A stretch of DNA of 12,773 nucleotides from an archaeon (GTDB lineage: Archaea; Iainarchaeota; Iainarchaeia; Iainarchaeales; CSSED10-239), in assembly GCA_037147375.1 (NCBI GenBank), contig JBAWVI010000020.1, positions 1 through 12,773 of the forward strand, in the 5' to 3' direction. Both the position numbers and the translations under genes were made by a program. Shown in pieces: positions 4 to 12,019 of the stretch. The notes under the pieces were generated by a model. It was not told the origin of the DNA and did not search any database. It saw nothing but the letters and a program-made list of their open reading frames with translations. Position 1 is the first letter of the stretch; the number at the start of each line of letters is the position of its first letter.

Positions 4-936
4 ATGAATAATATTATGCAAAAATTAAATTTTATGAATGTTCCAAAGGAATATAATGATAAGAAGAAATCAAAGGTTATTATCATACCAATATCTTATG
101 ATGTTCCTCTTGCTCATGGAACTGGAGCATCTAAGGGCCCAGAAGCAATTATAAAAGCATCAGCTAATATTGATTATTTTGATCTTGAACTCCAAAAGGA
201 ACCATACATTCAAGGAATATACACTGAAGATATTCTTTCTCTTAAGGATAAAGATTTCTTAAAGGTTTCTCCAAAAGTTCTTAATTATCTTTCAAATCTT
301 AAGCTTACAAAAGATAAGTTTCCAATAATTATTGGATCTGATCATTCAAATACTATTCCTGTTATCTCTTCTTTTGAAAAAATATACAAAGAAAAAGATG
401 ATTTTGGGATAATTGTGTTTGATACACATCCTGATTGCTATGAACCATGGGGTAAAGATACTTGGTGGCAAGCATGCACTACACGAATAATTTCAAAAAA
501 TCATAAATCAATGATTGTGGGTGTAAGAACTTCTGATTTTTATGAAAATGAATTTTTAAAAAATAAAGATAATAAAAACATAACTGTTATAAATATGCAA
601 GATTTCTTGGACAGTAAAAGTACATTTTATGATCTTTCAAGAAACAAAAAGTTTCTTGATAACCTAAAGAAACTTCCAAAGAATATATTTATTTCAATTG
701 ATGTTGATGTTCTTGATCCATCAGTAATCAGAAATACAGCAGCACTTGAACCTGGAGGAATGAACTATCTTCAACTTCTTTCTCTCCTTAAAGTAATATT
801 TAAAGAAAAGAATGTAATTGGAGCAGATATAGTTGAATTCACTCCGACAGGAAACGAAGATTATTATTTCCCTGAAAGCTATACCTTAGCAAAATTAGTA
901 TATAAGCTTGTAGGATACAAATATTACCTAAGATAA
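4..936 (+). CDS. speB: Agmatinase/arginase-family ureohydrolase (310 aa). The reading frame is open to the window edge, so the true start could lie upstream.
   Basis: Ureohydrolase Mn-binding motifs are present in the expected order: GSDHS, FDTHPD (DxHxD), SIDVDVLDPS (SxDxDxxDP), EPGG, ADIVEF. The length is typical of agmatinase. Substrate (agmatine, arginine or a guanidino acid) cannot be fixed from motifs alone. Confidence 0.8.
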   Translation: MNNIMQKLNFMNVPKEYNDKKKSKVIIIPISYDVPLAHGTGASKGPEAIIKASANIDYFDLELQKEPYIQGIYTEDILSLKDKDFLKVSPKVLNYLSNLKLTKDKFPIIIGSDHSNTIPVISSFEKIYKEKDDFGIIVFDTHPDCYEPWGKDTWWQACTTRIISKNHKSMIVGVRTSDFYENEFLKNKDNKNITVINMQDFLDSKSTFYDLSRNKKFLDNLKKLPKNIFISIDVDVLDPSVIRNTAALEPGGMNYLQLLSLLKVIFKEKNVIGADIVEFTPTGNEDYYFPESYTLAKLVYKLVGYKYYLR

Positions 937-1015: not shown

Positions 1016-2611
1016 ATGATTTATAAAAATAAAATAATATTATTATTTTCAATTATTTTATTCATGAGTCTATTTGGTGCTGTGCTTTTTGCAGCAAGTG
1101 ATGCAAACACTTGTGATACAAATCAAGTAATTGGATCAGGAGCTTGCTCAATTGATGTAAATCTTCCAAGTGCAGATACATTATTTACAAATAATTCTCC
1201 AAAATTAACTAATTCAGAGATTGGAGATCTAGTTTGTGGAGTTTATTTCACTAAGTTAGGTTGTCCTCATTGTGCAAAGGTTGATCCTGTTCTTTTAGGA
1301 GAAACAGTAAGAAATAAAGATATATTTATTATTGAATATGAAGTTGGAGATAAGCAAATTAATGGTCAACAAATTATCCCATATGTTACAGGTGGTTATA
1401 ATTCAAATTATAATGTTCCACAACTTATCCTAAACCAAAAAGACGTTTTTTTCTTTGAAGAAATAACATCAAAGTTTTCTGATTATCTAGAGAAGAACCA
1501 AGGTTTTGGGAATATTTGTCCTCTTCCAACAGACATTTATTCAAAAGGAGATGTAAATTCATTACAAGATCTAAAAATAAATGAATTATCAGGTCTTCCA
1601 ACTGTTTGGTATAAAGATAGAGCTTTATTTAAAACAGGAGTATCTGAAGTTTCTGATGAAAATTTATATAAACTATTAACTGATGAAAATGTTGATCCAA
1701 TATTACATAGTAGTTATCATAAAATGTTATCAGACACAAGCATAGAAATATCTTATGGTAAAATAAAATTTGATAATGCTGTTGAACTTAAAGGATATAA
1801 TTTTTATTGGAATGGTAAAACAACTATTTCTGCATCTTGTGAAACACAAGACATAAATTTAGATGTAAACACTGATCAAAATTGTACAACTACAATAGGA
1901 TCAAATACAAACCAAAAAAAGATATCTTTGTGGACTGTAGTTTCTTTAGCACTTGTTGATGCAGTTAATCCTTGTGAGTTTGCTGTATTAATATTATTAT
2001 TATTAACAATAATGACTACAAATGTAGGTAAAAGAAGAAAGGTATTATATTCTGGTTTAATGTTTACACTTGCTATATTCCTATTATATTTTGTTTATGG
2101 TTTATTTTTAGTAAATATATTTAAATTAATACCTGGTGTTGATATCATTCGTATAGTTATCTATAAAGTAATTGCTGCATTTGCGTTATTCCTTGCTTTT
2201 ATGCAATTAAAAGATTATTTTAATTATAGACCAGGAACAATTGGTACTGAAATGCCTATGTCATTTAGACCAAAAGTACACAGATTAATTTCAAAGGTAA
2301 CTTCTCCATCAGGTGCATTTGTAGTTGGTGTAGTTGTTTCTTTATTCTTACTCCCATGCACAATTGGACCTTATGTTATTTTAGGTAATCTCTTATCTTA
2401 TGGAAGCTTATTAGCAGCACTACCTGTATTATTATTATATAATGTAATTTTCATCTTACCAATGCTTGCAATCACCTTAATTATTTATTTTGGAGTAACT
2501 GAGGTTCAAAAGGTAGGCGAATGGAAGCAAAAAAATATAAAATATTTCCATTTAATAGCAGGTATAATATTATTTATCTTAGGAATATTAATGTTATTTG
2601 GAATAATATAA
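1016..2611 (+). CDS. Fusion protein (531 aa): signal-anchor, extracytoplasmic thioredoxin-like domain (CPHC), Cys-containing linker, then a six-TM CcdA/DsbD-type thiol-disulfide transporter domain
   Basis: N-terminal hydrophobic helix (IILLFSIILFMSLFGAVLFAA). Trx-like active site GCPHC followed by a cis-Pro-type VPQLIL. About six predicted C-terminal TM helices, with the two conserved membrane-embedded cysteines of the CcdA/DsbD family (VDAVNPCEF in TM1, LLPCTIGPY in TM4). Confidence 0.75.
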   Translation: MIYKNKIILLFSIILFMSLFGAVLFAASDANTCDTNQVIGSGACSIDVNLPSADTLFTNNSPKLTNSEIGDLVCGVYFTKLGCPHCAKVDPVLLGETVRNKDIFIIEYEVGDKQINGQQIIPYVTGGYNSNYNVPQLILNQKDVFFFEEITSKFSDYLEKNQGFGNICPLPTDIYSKGDVNSLQDLKINELSGLPTVWYKDRALFKTGVSEVSDENLYKLLTDENVDPILHSSYHKMLSDTSIEISYGKIKFDNAVELKGYNFYWNGKTTISASCETQDINLDVNTDQNCTTTIGSNTNQKKISLWTVVSLALVDAVNPCEFAVLILLLLTIMTTNVGKRRKVLYSGLMFTLAIFLLYFVYGLFLVNIFKLIPGVDIIRIVIYKVIAAFALFLAFMQLKDYFNYRPGTIGTEMPMSFRPKVHRLISKVTSPSGAFVVGVVVSLFLLPCTIGPYVILGNLLSYGSLLAALPVLLLYNVIFILPMLAITLIIYFGVTEVQKVGEWKQKNIKYFHLIAGIILFILGILMLFGII

Positions 2612-4095: not shown

Positions 4096-4968
4096 TTAAA
4101 TATTACCAAGATATACTTTTTTTATTCCTTCTTTTCTTGCAATCTTTTCAGCAAGCTTTAAAGTTTCAATCTTTGTAGGAATAATCTTTTGCATCTTGTA
4201 GTGTGGAAAGCTTCTTGAAAAATGTAGAGGGATATCTTTTGATATTTTTGCAAGTTCTTTACAAACAAATTCAATTTCTTCTGGTCTTGTATTTTCTCCC
4301 TCAATTAAAAGGTTTGTAACTTCAACATGTATTCCTTTCTTGTGAAAAAAGCTAATGTTTTTAAGAACTTGATTAACTTCTGTTCCATTTATTAATCTTT
4401 TATAAAAATCTTTATCTCCTTTAAGATCTATGTTTACTGCATCTAGATATTTTGTAACTTCTTTTGCAACCTCATTTGTCATGTATCCATTTGTTACCCA
4501 AATGTTTGCAAGACCTGCTTCTTTTGCAAGCTTCATTGTTTCAAGTGCATATTCAATAAATACAGTTGGTTCTGTATATGTGTATGATATGCTTGGACAA
4601 TTATTTTCAAGTGCTAGAGAAATAATATCTTTTGGAGTAGTTTCTTTAATCTTATTCATTTGCTCTTCTTTTTTTGCGTTTGAGATATTGTAATTCTGAC
4701 AGAAATTACAATCAAAGTTACAACCATATGTTCCAAAGCTTAAAGTAAATGTTTTTGGAAGAAAATTAAAAATTGGTTTTTTCTCAATAGGATCAATATT
4801 GATAGTAACTGGCTTACCATAAACTAGAGAATAAAGAGTACCATCTATGTTTTTTCGGACTTTGCAAAACCCAGTACTATCACAAGAGATAATGCATAAC
4901 CTATTGCAAGCTATGCATTGAACTTTTTTATCTTCTTTTAGTTTCTTATAAAAGAGTGCTTCTTTCAT
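4096..4968 (-). CDS. amrS: AmmeMemoRadiSam system radical SAM enzyme (PflA-like activase family, 290 aa)
   Basis: Radical SAM CxxxCxxC cluster motif (GCNFDCNFCQN). N-terminal Cys cluster (VQCIACNRLCIISCDSTGFCKVRKN) typical of this subfamily. Its ATG overlaps the TGA of the upstream Memo/AMMECR1 gene (ATGA at 4965-4968). Confidence 0.85.
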   Translation of the reverse strand: MKEALFYKKLKEDKKVQCIACNRLCIISCDSTGFCKVRKNIDGTLYSLVYGKPVTINIDPIEKKPIFNFLPKTFTLSFGTYGCNFDCNFCQNYNISNAKKEEQMNKIKETTPKDIISLALENNCPSISYTYTEPTVFIEYALETMKLAKEAGLANIWVTNGYMTNEVAKEVTKYLDAVNIDLKGDKDFYKRLINGTEVNQVLKNISFFHKKGIHVEVTNLLIEGENTRPEEIEFVCKELAKISKDIPLHFSRSFPHYKMQKIIPTKIETLKLAEKIARKEGIKKVYLGNI

Positions 4969-6380
4969 TTGATTATCTCCACATTAAACTTCTTGAAAAT
5001 TGTTTTTTCATCTTTGTAACAATTCCATTCAAGACCTGCTTTCTCACAAAGAGATCCAAGAAATTCATCTTTATTTGGAAGTTGTTCCCAAACTTGTGGA
5101 AGATAAATAGCTGAGTTATATCCTTTTTGAAGAATTACTCCATCATTTTTCTTTATGTCAGAAAGAGAACAAGAAGATGGAACAGAAAGAATAGAAACTT
5201 CAATATCTATTTTCTCAAATTCATTTTTTGTAAGCTTATTAAATCTATGATCAGAGAATGCAGCATTCTTTGCATTATCAATAACTCCTTCATAAACTGG
5301 AGAGGTACCAATTATGTTTCCAATACATCCTCTAAGTCTATTATTAATAGTTAAAGTAACAAATACTCCTTTCTTTTCAAGATATTCTTGTGGAATTATT
5401 TCTTTTATCTCTTCCTTATTTGTTTTAAGATTAGATAACTTATCTGATATTGATTTTCTAGCAAGTTTAATTAATATATTTTCAGTTTGTGGATAATAAT
5501 AAGAAAAAGAAGAATATCCAACAACTGATTTTTTATCTCTAGTAACATCTCCTGAATTAGAATAATTTAAAAGCTCTGATTTCCATTTTCTTTCTTTTGA
5601 AATTTCATTTAATATTATAATGCCTTTAACCCCACAAGCATCAATTTCTTTCTTTCCTGTAAGAATATTATTTATACTTGCTTTATCAGTTTCTCTTGCT
5701 TTAGTATCAGTTAAGAAATGAGATAAATCACTTGAAACTATTATAATTGTATTTTCATCTATTTCTTTCTCTATTGCTTTAATTGAATTACTAATATTTG
5801 CATCTCCAACAAGAACAGGAATTATTGAAAAATTCTTACTTGCTTTTGAAAATATATATTGAATAAATGGAAGTTGTACTTCAATTGCATGCTCTCCAAT
5901 AAAAGCAGAGTTATTATTATATTTATCAAGAGAACTTCTTTCTATTTTTAGGTTTCCAGTAGGTATTTGGTAATAAGAACTTGATAAAGTTGATATTTCT
6001 TTAAAATAAACTTTATGAGCTGGAGCTATAACAATAATCTTGTAGTTATCCTTTGTTGATAAGAGAAGATTGTAATATAGTTTTTTATAACCAATCATTG
6101 CTGTAAGTCCAGAATATTTATATCCTGCGTGAGGAACAATAATAGCTTTAATTTCTTCTCCAGAATAATTTATGTTTGCGTCTTTAAAAAAACTATCAAG
6201 TTCTTTAGTTATTCCTTTTTCTGTTCCTGGATAAAAACTATTTGAAACTTGAGAAGTAAATATATTTTCAGATATTTTATTTTTGTCTACCATAATAAAT
6301 CTGTATCCATTTAATATTATGAAAATAATAAGTATTGTAATAATTATATTTTTATATCTTGGTTTCATTAATTTTACCAA
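4965..6380 (-). CDS. amrB-amrA: Fused Memo-like (AmrB) + AMMECR1 (AmrA) protein with an N-terminal hydrophobic helix. It is 471 aa from the TTG at 6380. The ATG at 6368 (MKPRYKN..., 467 aa) is the more likely start.
   Basis: The N-terminal half carries Memo signatures: FYPG, VPHAGYKYSG, GEHAIEVQLPF, SSDLSHF, DACG. The C-terminal half carries AMMECR1 signatures: GVFVTL..LRGCIGN, SDHRF, IYLPQVWE. A hydrophobic segment (IIITILIIFIILNGY) precedes the Memo domain. Confidence 0.85.
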   Translation of the reverse strand: MVKLMKPRYKNIIITILIIFIILNGYRFIMVDKNKISENIFTSQVSNSFYPGTEKGITKELDSFFKDANINYSGEEIKAIIVPHAGYKYSGLTAMIGYKKLYYNLLLSTKDNYKIIVIAPAHKVYFKEISTLSSSYYQIPTGNLKIERSSLDKYNNNSAFIGEHAIEVQLPFIQYIFSKASKNFSIIPVLVGDANISNSIKAIEKEIDENTIIIVSSDLSHFLTDTKARETDKASINNILTGKKEIDACGVKGIIILNEISKERKWKSELLNYSNSGDVTRDKKSVVGYSSFSYYYPQTENILIKLARKSISDKLSNLKTNKEEIKEIIPQEYLEKKGVFVTLTINNRLRGCIGNIIGTSPVYEGVIDNAKNAAFSDHRFNKLTKNEFEKIDIEVSILSVPSSCSLSDIKKNDGVILQKGYNSAIYLPQVWEQLPNKDEFLGSLCEKAGLEWNCYKDEKTIFKKFNVEIIK

Positions 6381-6976
6381 TTAACAATAATGCTTGTTAT
6401 TACTCTTAATGCTTGAGGAATGTCTTTAGGTGGGGTTGATTTAATTATTTTAGTAATCTCAATCATTGCATTTCTTGCAAATATTGGAGCTCTTGGATCA
6501 ACTGTGTTACCTTTTGCATTAACATATGCTTTTGATTTATTATTAAGAACATCTATAATATTAAAATATTGATCAATTAATTTTTGGTCTGCTGTTCTTT
6601 CAAGAATAATCTGCATAACCTTTATTTCTTCTTCTATAGTTTCAAGTTCTGCAAGTTTTGCTTTATTTGTGACCATATCCTTTCTTATAATCTCATTATG
6701 ATCTCTTATTTTTGTTTTTTCTTTAGGTTCCATCTTAAGTTCTTTTAATAGTTTATCAAGTTCTATAACAGACATTCCATGTTTGAAATTTATTTCTTTA
6801 ATTTTATCTAAATACAATAAATATAGTGCTTTTTGTTCACCTAGTCTTATAAGATTAGTTTCTTTTCCCTTATAATTATATTTTTTATTTCTATTAAATT
6901 TAAAATTATGTTTTTCTTCCTTTGGGCTTAATGTTTTTAAACTTTTAAGTAGTTGACTGTTTCTTCTAGGGTTCAT
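6374..6976 (-). CDS. Hypothetical protein, 200 aa, basic N-terminus, predicted helical, no TM segment
   Basis: Long ORF with an ATG start, 6 nt downstream of the HIT gene stop and abutting the amrB-amrA start. I recognise no motif. Confidence 0.6.
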   Translation of the reverse strand: MNPRRNSQLLKSLKTLSPKEEKHNFKFNRNKKYNYKGKETNLIRLGEQKALYLLYLDKIKEINFKHGMSVIELDKLLKELKMEPKEKTKIRDHNEIIRKDMVTNKAKLAELETIEEEIKVMQIILERTADQKLIDQYFNIIDVLNNKSKAYVNAKGNTVDPRAPIFARNAMIEITKIIKSTPPKDIPQALRVITSIIVNW

Positions 6977-7415: not shown

Positions 7416-8594
7416 TTAATTGTATTTTTTAACTAATTTACTTAATTCTCTTTCTATTTTTGCAAGTATAATTGCTTTGTTTCTATTTGTTTTGTATGTT
7501 TCTAAATTTGTTAATTCAATGTGTTCTTTTAAAGGATTTCCAAATCTTATGTTTTCCTTTCTTTCTGGACTTATTTTTTTAGTAATTTCTTCAATCCTTT
7601 GATTTAATTCTTCTTTTGTATGATTTTCTATTGTTGGTAATCTTGTATATATGTTTCTTTGGTTTTCAGCAAGTACTCTAAGTCTTAGTTTATTTTTTTC
7701 AAAATCATATGATTCAATAAGTTCCCTTTCTTTTTTTCTAGTAATTTGACTTTCAGAAATTAGAGATTCTGTTTTCTTTCTTATATTTTCAATTAATTGT
7801 AACTTAATTGAATTTAGAGACCTTCTTACTATTTCTGAATTACCTAAATTCAATCCATACTTGTGATTGTTGATTATTTCTTTTATTCTTCTTTCTTTAA
7901 GAAGTATGTTTTGTTTAGCGTCTTCAACTATTATTGTAGTATCTCTTATTTTAAGTTTAGGAAATGTATTTTGTATTTCGTTTGCAAGAACTAATATTTT
8001 ATTTTCTAAATCATGATATGGTATGGTTTGTGTCTTTTTGTCTTTAGCTAATCTTTCAATTAATTTATTTGTTTTTTCTAAGTCAAATATACGTTTATAT
8101 CTATTTAGAAACATCCTGTATTCATAATTTTTATGAGCAAAATTACTTATTTTATTTAACTCTTCTTTCTTTTCTGTTAATTTTCTATTAATTGTTTCAG
8201 TTTCCTGTTTAATCTCATTATATTTATCAATTTCATCTAGTATTTCTATTAATTTCTTTTTTTCTTTAATAAGTTCTATACCTACATTTAAAGATTCTGT
8301 TTTCTTGTTAAAATTATGTGATCTTTCAATTTCTTTTACATCTGATAGAACTGGATTTTGAGCAAGATCTATTAAATATTTAATTTTTTGTTTATCTTCT
8401 GGATTAATATTTCCTTTTTTACCTAGTTTTTGAAGATGTATTTTTATTTCTTGATTTCTTTCAGAAATTGTTTCATTATTTATTTTATTAAATGAATGTA
8501 AGTTAGGTTCAGTTAATCTCTTTAAATTATTAAGTTCTTCAGGAGTTTTAATTTTAAATCCTTTCTTTTCAATTTTTCTTTTTAATGCAGGCAT
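7416..8594 (-). CDS. Hypothetical K/E/N/I-rich coiled-coil protein, 392 aa
   Basis: Long uninterrupted ORF with an ATG start and heptad-like charged, low-complexity sequence throughout. No TM segment, no catalytic motif. It is the first gene of the tightly spaced minus-strand cluster. Confidence 0.6.
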   Translation of the reverse strand: MPALKRKIEKKGFKIKTPEELNNLKRLTEPNLHSFNKINNETISERNQEIKIHLQKLGKKGNINPEDKQKIKYLIDLAQNPVLSDVKEIERSHNFNKKTESLNVGIELIKEKKKLIEILDEIDKYNEIKQETETINRKLTEKKEELNKISNFAHKNYEYRMFLNRYKRIFDLEKTNKLIERLAKDKKTQTIPYHDLENKILVLANEIQNTFPKLKIRDTTIIVEDAKQNILLKERRIKEIINNHKYGLNLGNSEIVRRSLNSIKLQLIENIRKKTESLISESQITRKKERELIESYDFEKNKLRLRVLAENQRNIYTRLPTIENHTKEELNQRIEEITKKISPERKENIRFGNPLKEHIELTNLETYKTNRNKAIILAKIERELSKLVKKYN

Positions 8595-9894: not shown

Positions 9895-10770
9895 ATGGCC
9901 GAGTTTAGAAAACTAACATCCAGAGATATAGTAGAAAGTATTTATTCATTTAATTATTTATATAATAATAAATTTCATATTACTAATAAAGAAGATATTT
10001 TAAGATTATGTAATATAAGCACAAATCAACAAGATGCTGAAAGGTTAGTTAAATTATTTCTTGTTCTTCCAGATAACTTAAGCTTTGAAGAAAGATTAAG
10101 CTCATTAAAATTAAATTATAATTTTTTTAAAAATACAAATATTTCAGAAATAATTAATAAGGATAAGGCGTTTCAAAATATTTCTTCTTCTATCTTTAAA
10201 ACTCATGTTGAATCAATTTACCAATATAATGTGATTGGAAAAGATGGAACTCACTTTGCAAGTTTTGATTTTTATTTTAGTATAAATAAACATAAGAAAG
10301 TTGAATTGATTATTAATAACTTACAAGGAGAAAATATTAAAAGATTAAAAGAAGTTCCAAAGGAATTAAAAACAATTAATTGGAGATTAATAATTACTAA
10401 AAATCTTGCGGATTTTGGTAAGAGGATGGGTGCGACTGTTATTGGTAATTTTCCAAAGCACTATTCTCAAGATGGAGTCACTGATAAAGAATACCTTCGT
10501 CAACTTGAAACTTATCTATTAACTTATTTAAAGGCAGATATCAAACCTGAAAACATTAGTTTAAGAAATATTGAAAATCCAGAATATAAGTTTGAGTTTA
10601 AGAAAACATTAGATTTATTGAAATCTAAACCAGAGTATGAAATCAAAAAAATAACAAGAGCTTTTGAATCTCAAAGGTATAGAGATCAAGTTCCTAAAGA
10701 ACAAACTAAAAAAAGTAATCAATTGGAAATTAAATTTCCAAAAAGAATTATTAAAAATAAGATAAAATAA
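9895..10770 (+). CDS. Hypothetical protein, 291 aa, starting 3 nt after the fen stop codon
   Basis: Long ORF with an ATG start and same-strand tight linkage to fen. I recognise no motif. The C-terminus is lysine-rich. Confidence 0.6.
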   Translation: MAEFRKLTSRDIVESIYSFNYLYNNKFHITNKEDILRLCNISTNQQDAERLVKLFLVLPDNLSFEERLSSLKLNYNFFKNTNISEIINKDKAFQNISSSIFKTHVESIYQYNVIGKDGTHFASFDFYFSINKHKKVELIINNLQGENIKRLKEVPKELKTINWRLIITKNLADFGKRMGATVIGNFPKHYSQDGVTDKEYLRQLETYLLTYLKADIKPENISLRNIENPEYKFEFKKTLDLLKSKPEYEIKKITRAFESQRYRDQVPKEQTKKSNQLEIKFPKRIIKNKIK

Positions 10771-11557: not shown

Positions 11558-12019
11558 ATGAAGCAAAAATCTGATTGTGTATTTTGCAAGATTGCTAAGA
11601 AAGAACTTGAAGCTGCAATTATATATGAAGATAAAGAGTTTATAGCTATTTTAGATGGACATCCAAATATTAAAGGTGCAACTCTTGTATTAACTAAAGA
11701 ACATTATGGTTCTTACGTTTTTGATTTACAAGATAAAGTATATACTAAGTTACTATTAACTTCAAAGAAGGTTGCAAAGATTCTTGAAAAAGGATTAGGT
11801 GTTAAGAAAGTTGCAATGGTTTTTGAAGGACAAGGAGTAAATCACATTCATACCAAACTATATCCTATGCCTAAGATTAATGATTCTAAATTTGGAGAAT
11901 TATCTGGTAATATCTATTTTAAGAAATATCCAGGATATATCACAACATTAGTTGGGCCTAAAATGGATATCAAGAAAAGGCAAAAGATTGCTAAGGAAAT
12001 ATTATTAAAGAGTAAATAA
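11558..12019 (+). CDS. Divergent HIT-family protein, 153 aa, with the third triad histidine replaced by lysine (HxHxK)
   Basis: It has the N-terminal CVFCKI motif. The motif region EGQGVNHIHTKLYPM aligns to the canonical GQxVxHxHxHxxP, giving H-I-H-T-K. Confidence 0.8.
   Translation: MKQKSDCVFCKIAKKELEAAIIYEDKEFIAILDGHPNIKGATLVLTKEHYGSYVFDLQDKVYTKLLLTSKKVAKILEKGLGVKKVAMVFEGQGVNHIHTKLYPMPKINDSKFGELSGNIYFKKYPGYITTLVGPKMDIKKRQKIAKEILLKSK

Follow-up and report, generated by a model that had tools for sequence, protein, structure and literature searches.

An archaeal AmmeMemoRadiSam locus whose Memo-AMMECR1 fusion protein carries a probable N-terminal targeting segment

We analyzed a 12,773-nucleotide stretch of DNA (contig JBAWVI010000020.1, assembly GCA_037147375.1; hereafter the window) from an archaeon of the Iainarchaeota, in which two overlapping genes encode an AmmeMemoRadiSam system. 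One, amrBA, encodes a fusion of a Memo-like (AmrB) and an AMMECR1 (AmrA) domain, hereafter B-A, and the other, amrS, encodes a radical S-adenosylmethionine (SAM) enzyme. The best explanation of the evidence, to which we assign a probability of roughly 0.55, is that the fusion is Sec-targeted, with its domains outside and AmrS in the cytoplasm, and that either the substrate is envelope- or lipid-borne or a shorter isoform starting at an internal methionine (M26) serves AmrS. Relatives are designated by locus (L) or protein (P) number. The features of the two genes are:

4965 to 6368, minus strand: amrB-amrA fused gene, 467 amino acids; ATG at 6368, stop codon TGA at 4965-4967
6294 to 6368, minus strand: predicted Sec-type signal/anchor segment, codons 1-25; n-region MKPRYKN, h-region IIITILIIFIIL, then NGYRFI
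6291 to 6293, minus strand: internal ATG (M26); NCBI-annotated start and candidate alternative initiation site
5502 to 6251, minus strand: Memo-like (AmrB) domain, residues 40-289; putative metal ligands H80, H118, D214, H217, and C245
4974 to 5477, minus strand: AMMECR1 (AmrA) domain, residues 298-465; RGCIG (C348), DHRF (D373, R375), LPQVW
4965 to 4968, minus strand: ATGA, in which the stop of amrBA overlaps the start of amrS, read from the sequence
4096 to 4968, minus strand: amrS, AmmeMemoRadiSam radical SAM enzyme, 290 amino acids (TIGR04337)
4699 to 4722, minus strand: radical SAM cluster motif CNFDCNFC (C83, C87, C90) of AmrS, from the translation; Pfam Radical_SAM 74.4 bits

The N-terminal extension of the fusion protein

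The largest open frame of the fusion (4965 to 6380, minus strand) has a TTG start and 471 codons for amino acids. In the DNA of relatives L003 and L086, a stop codon lies immediately 5′ of the equivalent of ATG 6368, so this ATG is the conserved start and the TTG is not conserved. It sits 5 nucleotides past the stop of the upstream gene (6374 to 6976, minus strand). From this start, 39 residues precede the Memo core, comprising MKPRYKN, IIITILIIFIIL, and NGYRF onward. An earlier interpretation made from the DNA letters (the sequence-only reading) had noticed this extension and put it at about 45 residues; the extension is present, at the shorter length. The NCBI protein MEI8364209.1 (P0001) has 442 amino acids, begins at M26, is 100% identical to our translation from there, and omits the helix. 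Many homologs of the archaeal clade are likewise annotated short, at 441-447 amino acids. Automatic start-codon choice has in this way hidden the targeting segment from the public annotation of the window protein. The Joint Genome Institute (JGI) gene call for the L002-type protein (P0122) is the long form, and the L095-L097 proteins are already annotated in long form.

An in-frame upstream start, a Lys/Arg-rich n-region and a hydrophobic core are also found in the DNA of L001, L084, L086/L003, L002, L088, L091, L092, and L094. Stops make up about 7% of codons in window DNA, and repeated open extensions are therefore not expected by chance. Over the 25 extension codons, the window, L084 and L001 differ pairwise by synonymous and non-synonymous changes in ratios of 4:1, 2:3, and 2:2, mainly at third positions and resembling the rest of the gene, and the L086 extension contains a 6-nucleotide in-frame insertion. 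In L095 and L096, the start of the long form and the stop codon of the HIT gene upstream overlap, which suggests a single operon. By a simple rule, an N-terminal hydrophobic segment is present in 33 of 46 archaeal-clade entries and in 65 of 75 more distant entries; L093, which is 57% identical, is truly helix-less, with a stop lying just upstream.

The basic n-region and uninterrupted h-region at the extreme N-terminus of the window protein have the Sec-type arrangement, and this pattern is conserved in the clade. The frame kept open in relatives, the in-frame indel and the synonymous changes bear out the hydrophobic segment that the sequence-only reading had proposed. The first 25 codons are very probably translated, as a predicted Sec-type targeting sequence with a basic n-region and a 12-15-residue hydrophobic core.

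Predicted orientation in the membrane

The N-flank of the window protein has a charge of +3 over 7 residues. Across 33 clade sequences, whose hydrophobic cores are 12-24 residues long, the mean net charge is +3.2 for the N-flank and +0.67 for the 15-residue C-flank. Under the positive-inside rule, by which the positively charged flank stays on the cytoplasmic side, this bias points to an N-in/C-out orientation or to a cleaved signal peptide. The h-region ends in a small residue, G or S, in most clade members (..LNG/Y, ..IVG/N, ..WIG/E), and in L003 and L086 it reads LILSGC. Bacterial orthologs of 35-40% identity have signal peptidase I (SPase I)-type signal peptides directly before the Memo core, with MKLKTKFIILCATLFLTSFSIASVCLA followed by ENIRKP and MMRYKSILIFIVFILFSLNFIFA followed by EENIKQP, and other bacterial orthologs have lipoboxes (LFITGC, LLIGC, ALGC, TLGC) directly before it. 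The neighboring secreted thioredoxin/CcdA-like protein of the window has an n- and h-region of the same style.

We infer, with moderate support from charge and homology, that the long product either inserts into the cytoplasmic membrane or crosses it. The Memo-AMMECR1 module would most likely lie on the outer face, anchored or cleaved near the ..LNG/Y junction, and AmrS, which is signal-less in the clade, would stay in the cytoplasm. The radical step would then occur inside the cell and the Memo/AMMECR1 steps outside. Less firmly, the pathway substrate may be envelope- or lipid-borne rather than RNA, with AmrS acting in the cytoplasm; alternatively, a short cytoplasmic isoform from the conserved M26 might partner with AmrS.

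AmrS and the targeting signals of its bacterial relatives

The 290-amino-acid window protein matches the AmrS model TIGR04337 with 266.7 bits (cut-off 220) over profile positions 3-286 of 349, and it bears the CX3CX2C motif (C83, C87, C90). Profile positions 287-349 are absent, and the protein is about 60 residues shorter than other AmrS proteins. The AmrS proteins of the clade (289-294 amino acids in the relatives), and that of L063, end at ..VYLGNI, without the C-terminal segment of about 50 residues containing a CxxC...CxxC (zinc-ribbon-like) pattern that most others possess. Compared with bacterial AmrS sequences, clade AmrS proteins have no N-terminal signal, and a check of the translations found a twin-arginine RR motif in neither the window fusion nor the window AmrS. 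A PDB sequence search with AmrS found no relative. The nearest characterized relatives are the glycyl-radical activases (PflA, TIGR02493), which share the CX3CX2C core; assignment of AmrS itself to that family was rejected, with 41 bits against a cut-off of 231.75, and no glycyl-radical enzyme is encoded near the window AmrS.

Co-variation of signals was counted across bacterial loci encoding AmrS together with a fused B-A. Of the 13 loci with a signal on B-A, 11 have an AmrS extended N-terminally by 35-65 residues; among loci with a signal-less B-A, an AmrS extension occurs in 0 of 26. AmrS is unextended in the remaining two of the 13, L063 and L020; L063 is DPANN-like, and L020 is probably a false positive of the signal classification. 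The extended AmrS proteins are encoded at L004 4202-5380, L005 7546-8727, L008 7537-8727, L010 7467-8636, and L034 5446-6624, and also in L060, L083, L041, L042, L047, and L070. Five from Desulfobacterota have N-termini resembling twin-arginine translocation (Tat) signals (MAKITRRAFL, MKTLSRRQFL, MKKVSRRHFL, ..INRRQFL, MTAVNRREFL), two from Acidobacteriota contain DRRGFL and ERRYFL, and four from Omnitrophota have a plain hydrophobic helix. All of the extended proteins that were scanned (L004, L008, L060, L042) are bona fide AmrS, with 352-387 bits. The Tat call rests mainly on the visible RRxFL motifs, because all Pfam TAT_signal and UCR_Fe-S_N matches on bacterial AmrS are sub-threshold (13-21.6 bits) and NCBIfam TIGR01409 passes its cut-off only for the L060 AmrS. 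We know of no radical SAM enzyme that is exported.

A polytopic membrane protein of about 700-790 amino acids with a spermidine/spermine-synthase domain (PF01564, 41-45 bits) is encoded at L010 5358-7451 and L008 5451-7559, and also in L004, L005, L034, and L077; it is on the opposite strand in L006, L041, L047, L060, and L083. In Desulfobacterota its gene lies between B-A and AmrS. Among the loci listed, it accompanies only signal-bearing AmmeMemoRadiSam loci, and the DPANN loci lack it.

Alternative readings of the N-terminus

Several observations weigh against an external fusion working with a cytoplasmic AmrS. The clade AmrS has no export signal, and the bacterial co-variation (11 of 13 versus 0 of 26) suggests that the partners have to share a compartment; the clade B-A would then be cytoplasmic. 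The helix-less B-A of L093 is accompanied by the same short type of AmrS. With a signal-less AmrS, the pathway would be split across the membrane, or the anchor reversed, or a cytoplasmic B-A isoform made. The predicted orientation, and the choice between cleavage and anchoring, are drawn from the positive-inside rule and homology, and the envelope substrate from context. Shine-Dalgarno-like motifs precede 3 of the 12 window genes and neither B-A start, and are too rare to decide between the starts.

The alternative that fares best is that both starts are used, M1 giving an exported or anchored form and M26 a cytoplasmic form that works with AmrS. In the 15-25-residue linker from helix to Memo core, a Met is kept in 31 of 33 helix-bearing clade proteins while the surrounding residues diverge. 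A Met would be expected there by chance in about one third, and 31 of 33 overstates independence because the sequences are related. The position of the linker Met coincides with the start of the helix-less relatives L093, P0010, P0020, P0036, and P0039, and gene callers are divided between the two starts. However, no consistent Shine-Dalgarno motif or other initiation signal precedes M26, and the Met may be a relic of an ancestral start. Dual initiation is a hypothesis that we hold tentatively, as a real possibility on the unlikely side of even.

The sequence-only reading had the helix tether the fusion to the inner face of the membrane, the catalytic domains facing the cytoplasm to meet AmrS there. 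Its premise of cytoplasmic domains has in its favor that the clade AmrS is signal-less, and the overlap coupling of amrS to B-A, the shared compartment suggested by the bacterial signals and the pairing of helix-less L093 with the same AmrS type all suit such a tether. Against it, an N-out/C-in anchor would require translocation of the +3 N-tail, the charge bias in the 33 sequences (+3.2 versus +0.67) points the opposite way, and the orthologous bacterial N-termini are cleavable-type signal peptides or lipoboxes. We regard a cytoplasm-facing tether as improbable. In a third alternative, the extension is untranslated and the gene starts at M26, giving a purely cytoplasmic protein. That is where the NCBI entry starts, and AT-rich DNA easily encodes Ile, Leu, and Phe. 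An untranslated extension is nevertheless quite unlikely given the upstream ATG and open frame in all close relatives despite the frequency of stops, the in-frame indel and synonymous changes, the canonical n-/h-region layout in every lineage, and the overlap of the long-form start with the upstream stop in L095 and L096. A Sec-targeted fusion with external domains remains our preferred reading.

Family identity and structure of the fusion protein

The window genes belong to AmmeMemoRadiSam: the AmrB, AmrA, and AmrS models all score above their cut-offs and the components are encoded together. The fusion matches TIGR04336 (AmrB) with 195 bits (cut-off 26) at residues 40-289 and TIGR04335 (AmrA) with 163.8 bits (cut-off 99) at residues 298-465. 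The corresponding Pfam matches are Memo, 130.3 bits (cut-off 27) at residues 41-287, and AMMECR1, 146.5 bits (cut-off 25) at residues 301-465. E-values of 1e-48 to 1e-79 exclude chance matches. The module with fused Memo and AMMECR1 domains was correctly recognized from the letters, and the motifs cited for it (VPHAGYKYSG, GEHAIEVQLPF, SSDLSHF, DACG, LRGCIG, SDHRF, YLPQVW) are all found in the translation.

An AlphaFold2 model of the fusion was built from 70 homologs (predicted local distance difference test, pLDDT, 95.4; predicted template modeling score, pTM, 0.88). It contains a helix (residues 3-25), then a linker of lower confidence (about 26-35), and two tightly packed domains joined by a short, well-ordered junction. 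Across the 70 sequences, H80, H118, D214, and H217 of the Memo site do not vary, and C245 is conserved in at least 90%; RGCIG (R346-G350) and DxRF (D373-F376) are invariant, and LPQVW is invariant or nearly so. Foldseek with the model retrieved human MEMO1 (7kq8, 7l5c, 3bcz; E about 1e-21; template modeling (TM) score 0.73-0.75 on the target) and archaeal AMMECR1 proteins (1vaj, 1wsc, 1zq7; E about 1e-17), and a PDB sequence search with the fusion found the same two groups. The fold and the conserved His/Asp/Cys putative metal-site residues place the N-terminal half in the Memo/LigB-type superfamily, and RGChG and DxRa motifs on a two-RAGNYA-domain fold place the C-terminal half in the AMMECR1 family. 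These two motifs are the likely AMMECR1 active site (PMC2034487). As judged by fold and motifs, the AmrB half is a predicted Memo-like metal enzyme and the AmrA half a predicted catalytic-Cys enzyme, joined as a rigid two-domain protein. The invariant VVGY at the Memo C-terminus was considered as a glycyl-radical motif and set aside, the likeness being loose and the segment a core β-strand in the AlphaFold2 model.

Distribution of the fused architecture

The sequence-only reading had treated the fusion as a remarkable feature; it is instead the dominant architecture among relatives. Both Pfam domains are present in 119 of the 120 best database homologs, the sole exception being a partial sequence. 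These homologs come from archaea (unclassified, Woesearchaeota, Altiarchaeota), Desulfobacterota, Patescibacteria, TM6, and others, and their JGI names already read “protein B/protein A”. In a scan of species representatives of the Genome Taxonomy Database (GTDB), at least 596 of 600 candidate stretches encode relatives; 80 loci were kept, and most of them are fused. They span Pseudomonadota, Omnitrophota, Bdellovibrionota, Actinomycetes, Verrucomicrobiota, Acidobacteriota, and more. The GTDB-representative matches listed are bacterial, with none from the DPANN clade, which was sampled through contigs encoding the homologs; a metagenome scan gave only 5 close loci. Some bacterial loci, e.g., L012, L024, and L032, have separate adjacent B and A genes, and in L031 2620-5360, from a Rhodospirillaceae metagenome-assembled genome, matches to AmrS and to B-A share one open frame of 914 codons, which may be a triple S-B-A fusion.

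A frameshift or assembly artifact joining two separate genes can be dismissed, because the same fused open frame recurs in L001, L002, L003, L084, L086, L088, and L091-L097 (at least 12 independent clade assemblies) and in 119 of the 120 best homologs, and the modeled junction is short and well ordered at a pTM of 0.88. The neighborhood of AMMECR1, radical SAM and ring-opening-dioxygenase genes, with AMMECR1-dioxygenase gene fusions, was reported in 2007, together with a proposed role in RNA base modification (Balaji and Aravind 2007, PMC2034487). The window protein belongs to a known system, and its commonplace fusion adds nothing new in itself. The architecture is thus common but not characterized: a literature search on AmmeMemoRadiSam and on AMMECR1/Memo/radical SAM turned up no experimental study of the system in prokaryotes.

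Genomic neighborhood and conservation of the operon

The sequence-only reading was right that the TGA of the fusion overlaps the ATG of the radical SAM gene, and the translational coupling that it proposed agrees with this 4-nucleotide overlap and with a GGAG motif 8 nucleotides 5′ of the amrS ATG. Adjacency of amrS, mostly with a 4-nucleotide overlap, is found in the window, L002, L003/L086, L084, L088, L091, L092, L093, and L096, and the overlap is identical in L002, L003, and L091. In an 88%-identical relative, two 89-amino-acid genes on the opposite strand lie between amrBA and amrS (L001 3726-4279), and the overlap coupling is broken. No amrS was found within 5 kb of B-A in L094, L095, and L097. 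Of these, L095 and L097 keep the HIT and M50 protease genes, and L097 also has a DsbD-like gene and agmatinase. Retention of the module in a minimal genome had been taken to imply a core function; that argument is weak, because amrS is missing within 5 kb in these three loci, and L093 lacks the helix.

The other annotated features of the window are:

4 to 936, plus strand: agmatinase-family gene, three to four genes from amrBA
1016 to 2611, plus strand: CcdA/DsbD-like protein, 531 amino acids; signal peptide, extracytoplasmic CPHC thioredoxin-type domain, membrane domain
6374 to 6976, minus strand: Lys/Glu-rich protein, 200 amino acids
6983 to 7396, minus strand: HIT-family gene, upstream of amrBA throughout the clade
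7416 to 8594, minus strand: Lys/Glu-rich protein, 392 amino acids
8709 to 8781, minus strand: tRNA-Gly(TCC), from Rfam
9895 to 10770, plus strand: Lys/Glu-rich protein, 291 amino acids
11106 to 11181, plus strand: tRNA-Glu(TTC), from Rfam
11558 to 12019, plus strand: second HIT-family gene

Rfam matches nothing in the window except the two tRNA genes. An archaeal FEN1 gene is also present; like the GC content of 25-30%, it is consistent with a DPANN-type archaeon without proving one. A 200-213-amino-acid gene without a family match (6374-6976 in the window) lies between HIT and amrBA in the window, L001, L003, L084, L088, and L091; the 200-amino-acid window protein, the one of the three Lys/Glu-rich proteins that was scanned, has no Pfam match. 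In a search with it and the 392-amino-acid protein, which did not include the 291-amino-acid protein, relatives were found only in close-relative loci.

The gene for the 531-amino-acid CcdA/DsbD-like protein, which scores 32 bits against SfLAP, under the cut-off of 35, is also syntenic with B-A in L002, L095, and L097. The protein may supply extracellular reducing power, or the linkage may be mere synteny. Agmatinase adjoins arginine decarboxylase in L002 and L097. With the spermidine-synthase-like partner of the bacterial loci, agmatinase may represent a recurring polyamine theme, or a coincidence.

Relation to known systems and significance

Both Memo and AMMECR1 occur as conserved proteins in organisms from archaea through humans and are linked to disease; to our knowledge, no reaction or substrate has been established for either. 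The window genes are like other AmmeMemoRadiSam systems (TIGR04335/TIGR04336/TIGR04337) in being adjacent and overlapping and in having the usual B-A fusion. They differ in the N-terminal signal/anchor of the window fusion, omitted from its public annotation, and in the window AmrS, which is about 60 residues shorter than most of its family, without the C-terminal CxxC...CxxC. Human MEMO1 (3bcz; 7kq8, iron-bound; 7l5c, copper-bound) has the same fold, and its PHAGY, H-x-V, EH-x-IE, and SSD-x-x-H motifs align, but at about 22% identity it stands alone in the cytosol, unfused to AMMECR1 and lacking both a signal and a radical SAM partner. The archaeal AMMECR1 proteins PH0010, ST0229, and MM0484 (1vaj, 1wsc, 1zq7) share 33-39% identity, the fold, and the RGCIG and DxRF motifs with the window protein; they are stand-alone and cytoplasmic. 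Anaerobic sulfatase maturation combines a radical SAM enzyme of the cytoplasm with a partner exported through Sec; this is an analogy only, with no sequence relationship to the window system. Memo is also said to have been tied to nucleotide-base and isoprenoid modification in an abstract by Burroughs and colleagues from 2019 in the Journal of Biological Chemistry (JBC).

The localization signals are the informative part of this locus: they suggest that prokaryotes frequently target the module to the membrane or beyond it, and that some bacteria apparently do the same with its radical SAM partner. If this holds, the envelope, with its lipid, isoprenoid-linked or surface molecules, would be the place to look for the substrate, and not RNA. 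The published prediction of RNA base modification (PMC2034487) assumes a cytoplasmic enzyme, whereas the window fusion carries a predicted targeting segment. It is conceivable, though we give it less than an even chance, that AmmeMemoRadiSam is at heart an envelope-directed rather than a cytoplasmic RNA-modifying system, with all components targeted in several bacterial phyla, where the spermidine-synthase-like membrane protein joins the operon, and only B-A targeted here, M26 giving two products, one on either side of the membrane. If so, a bacterial AmrS with a Tat-like or hydrophobic N-terminus would be the first radical SAM enzyme to be exported or anchored facing outward.

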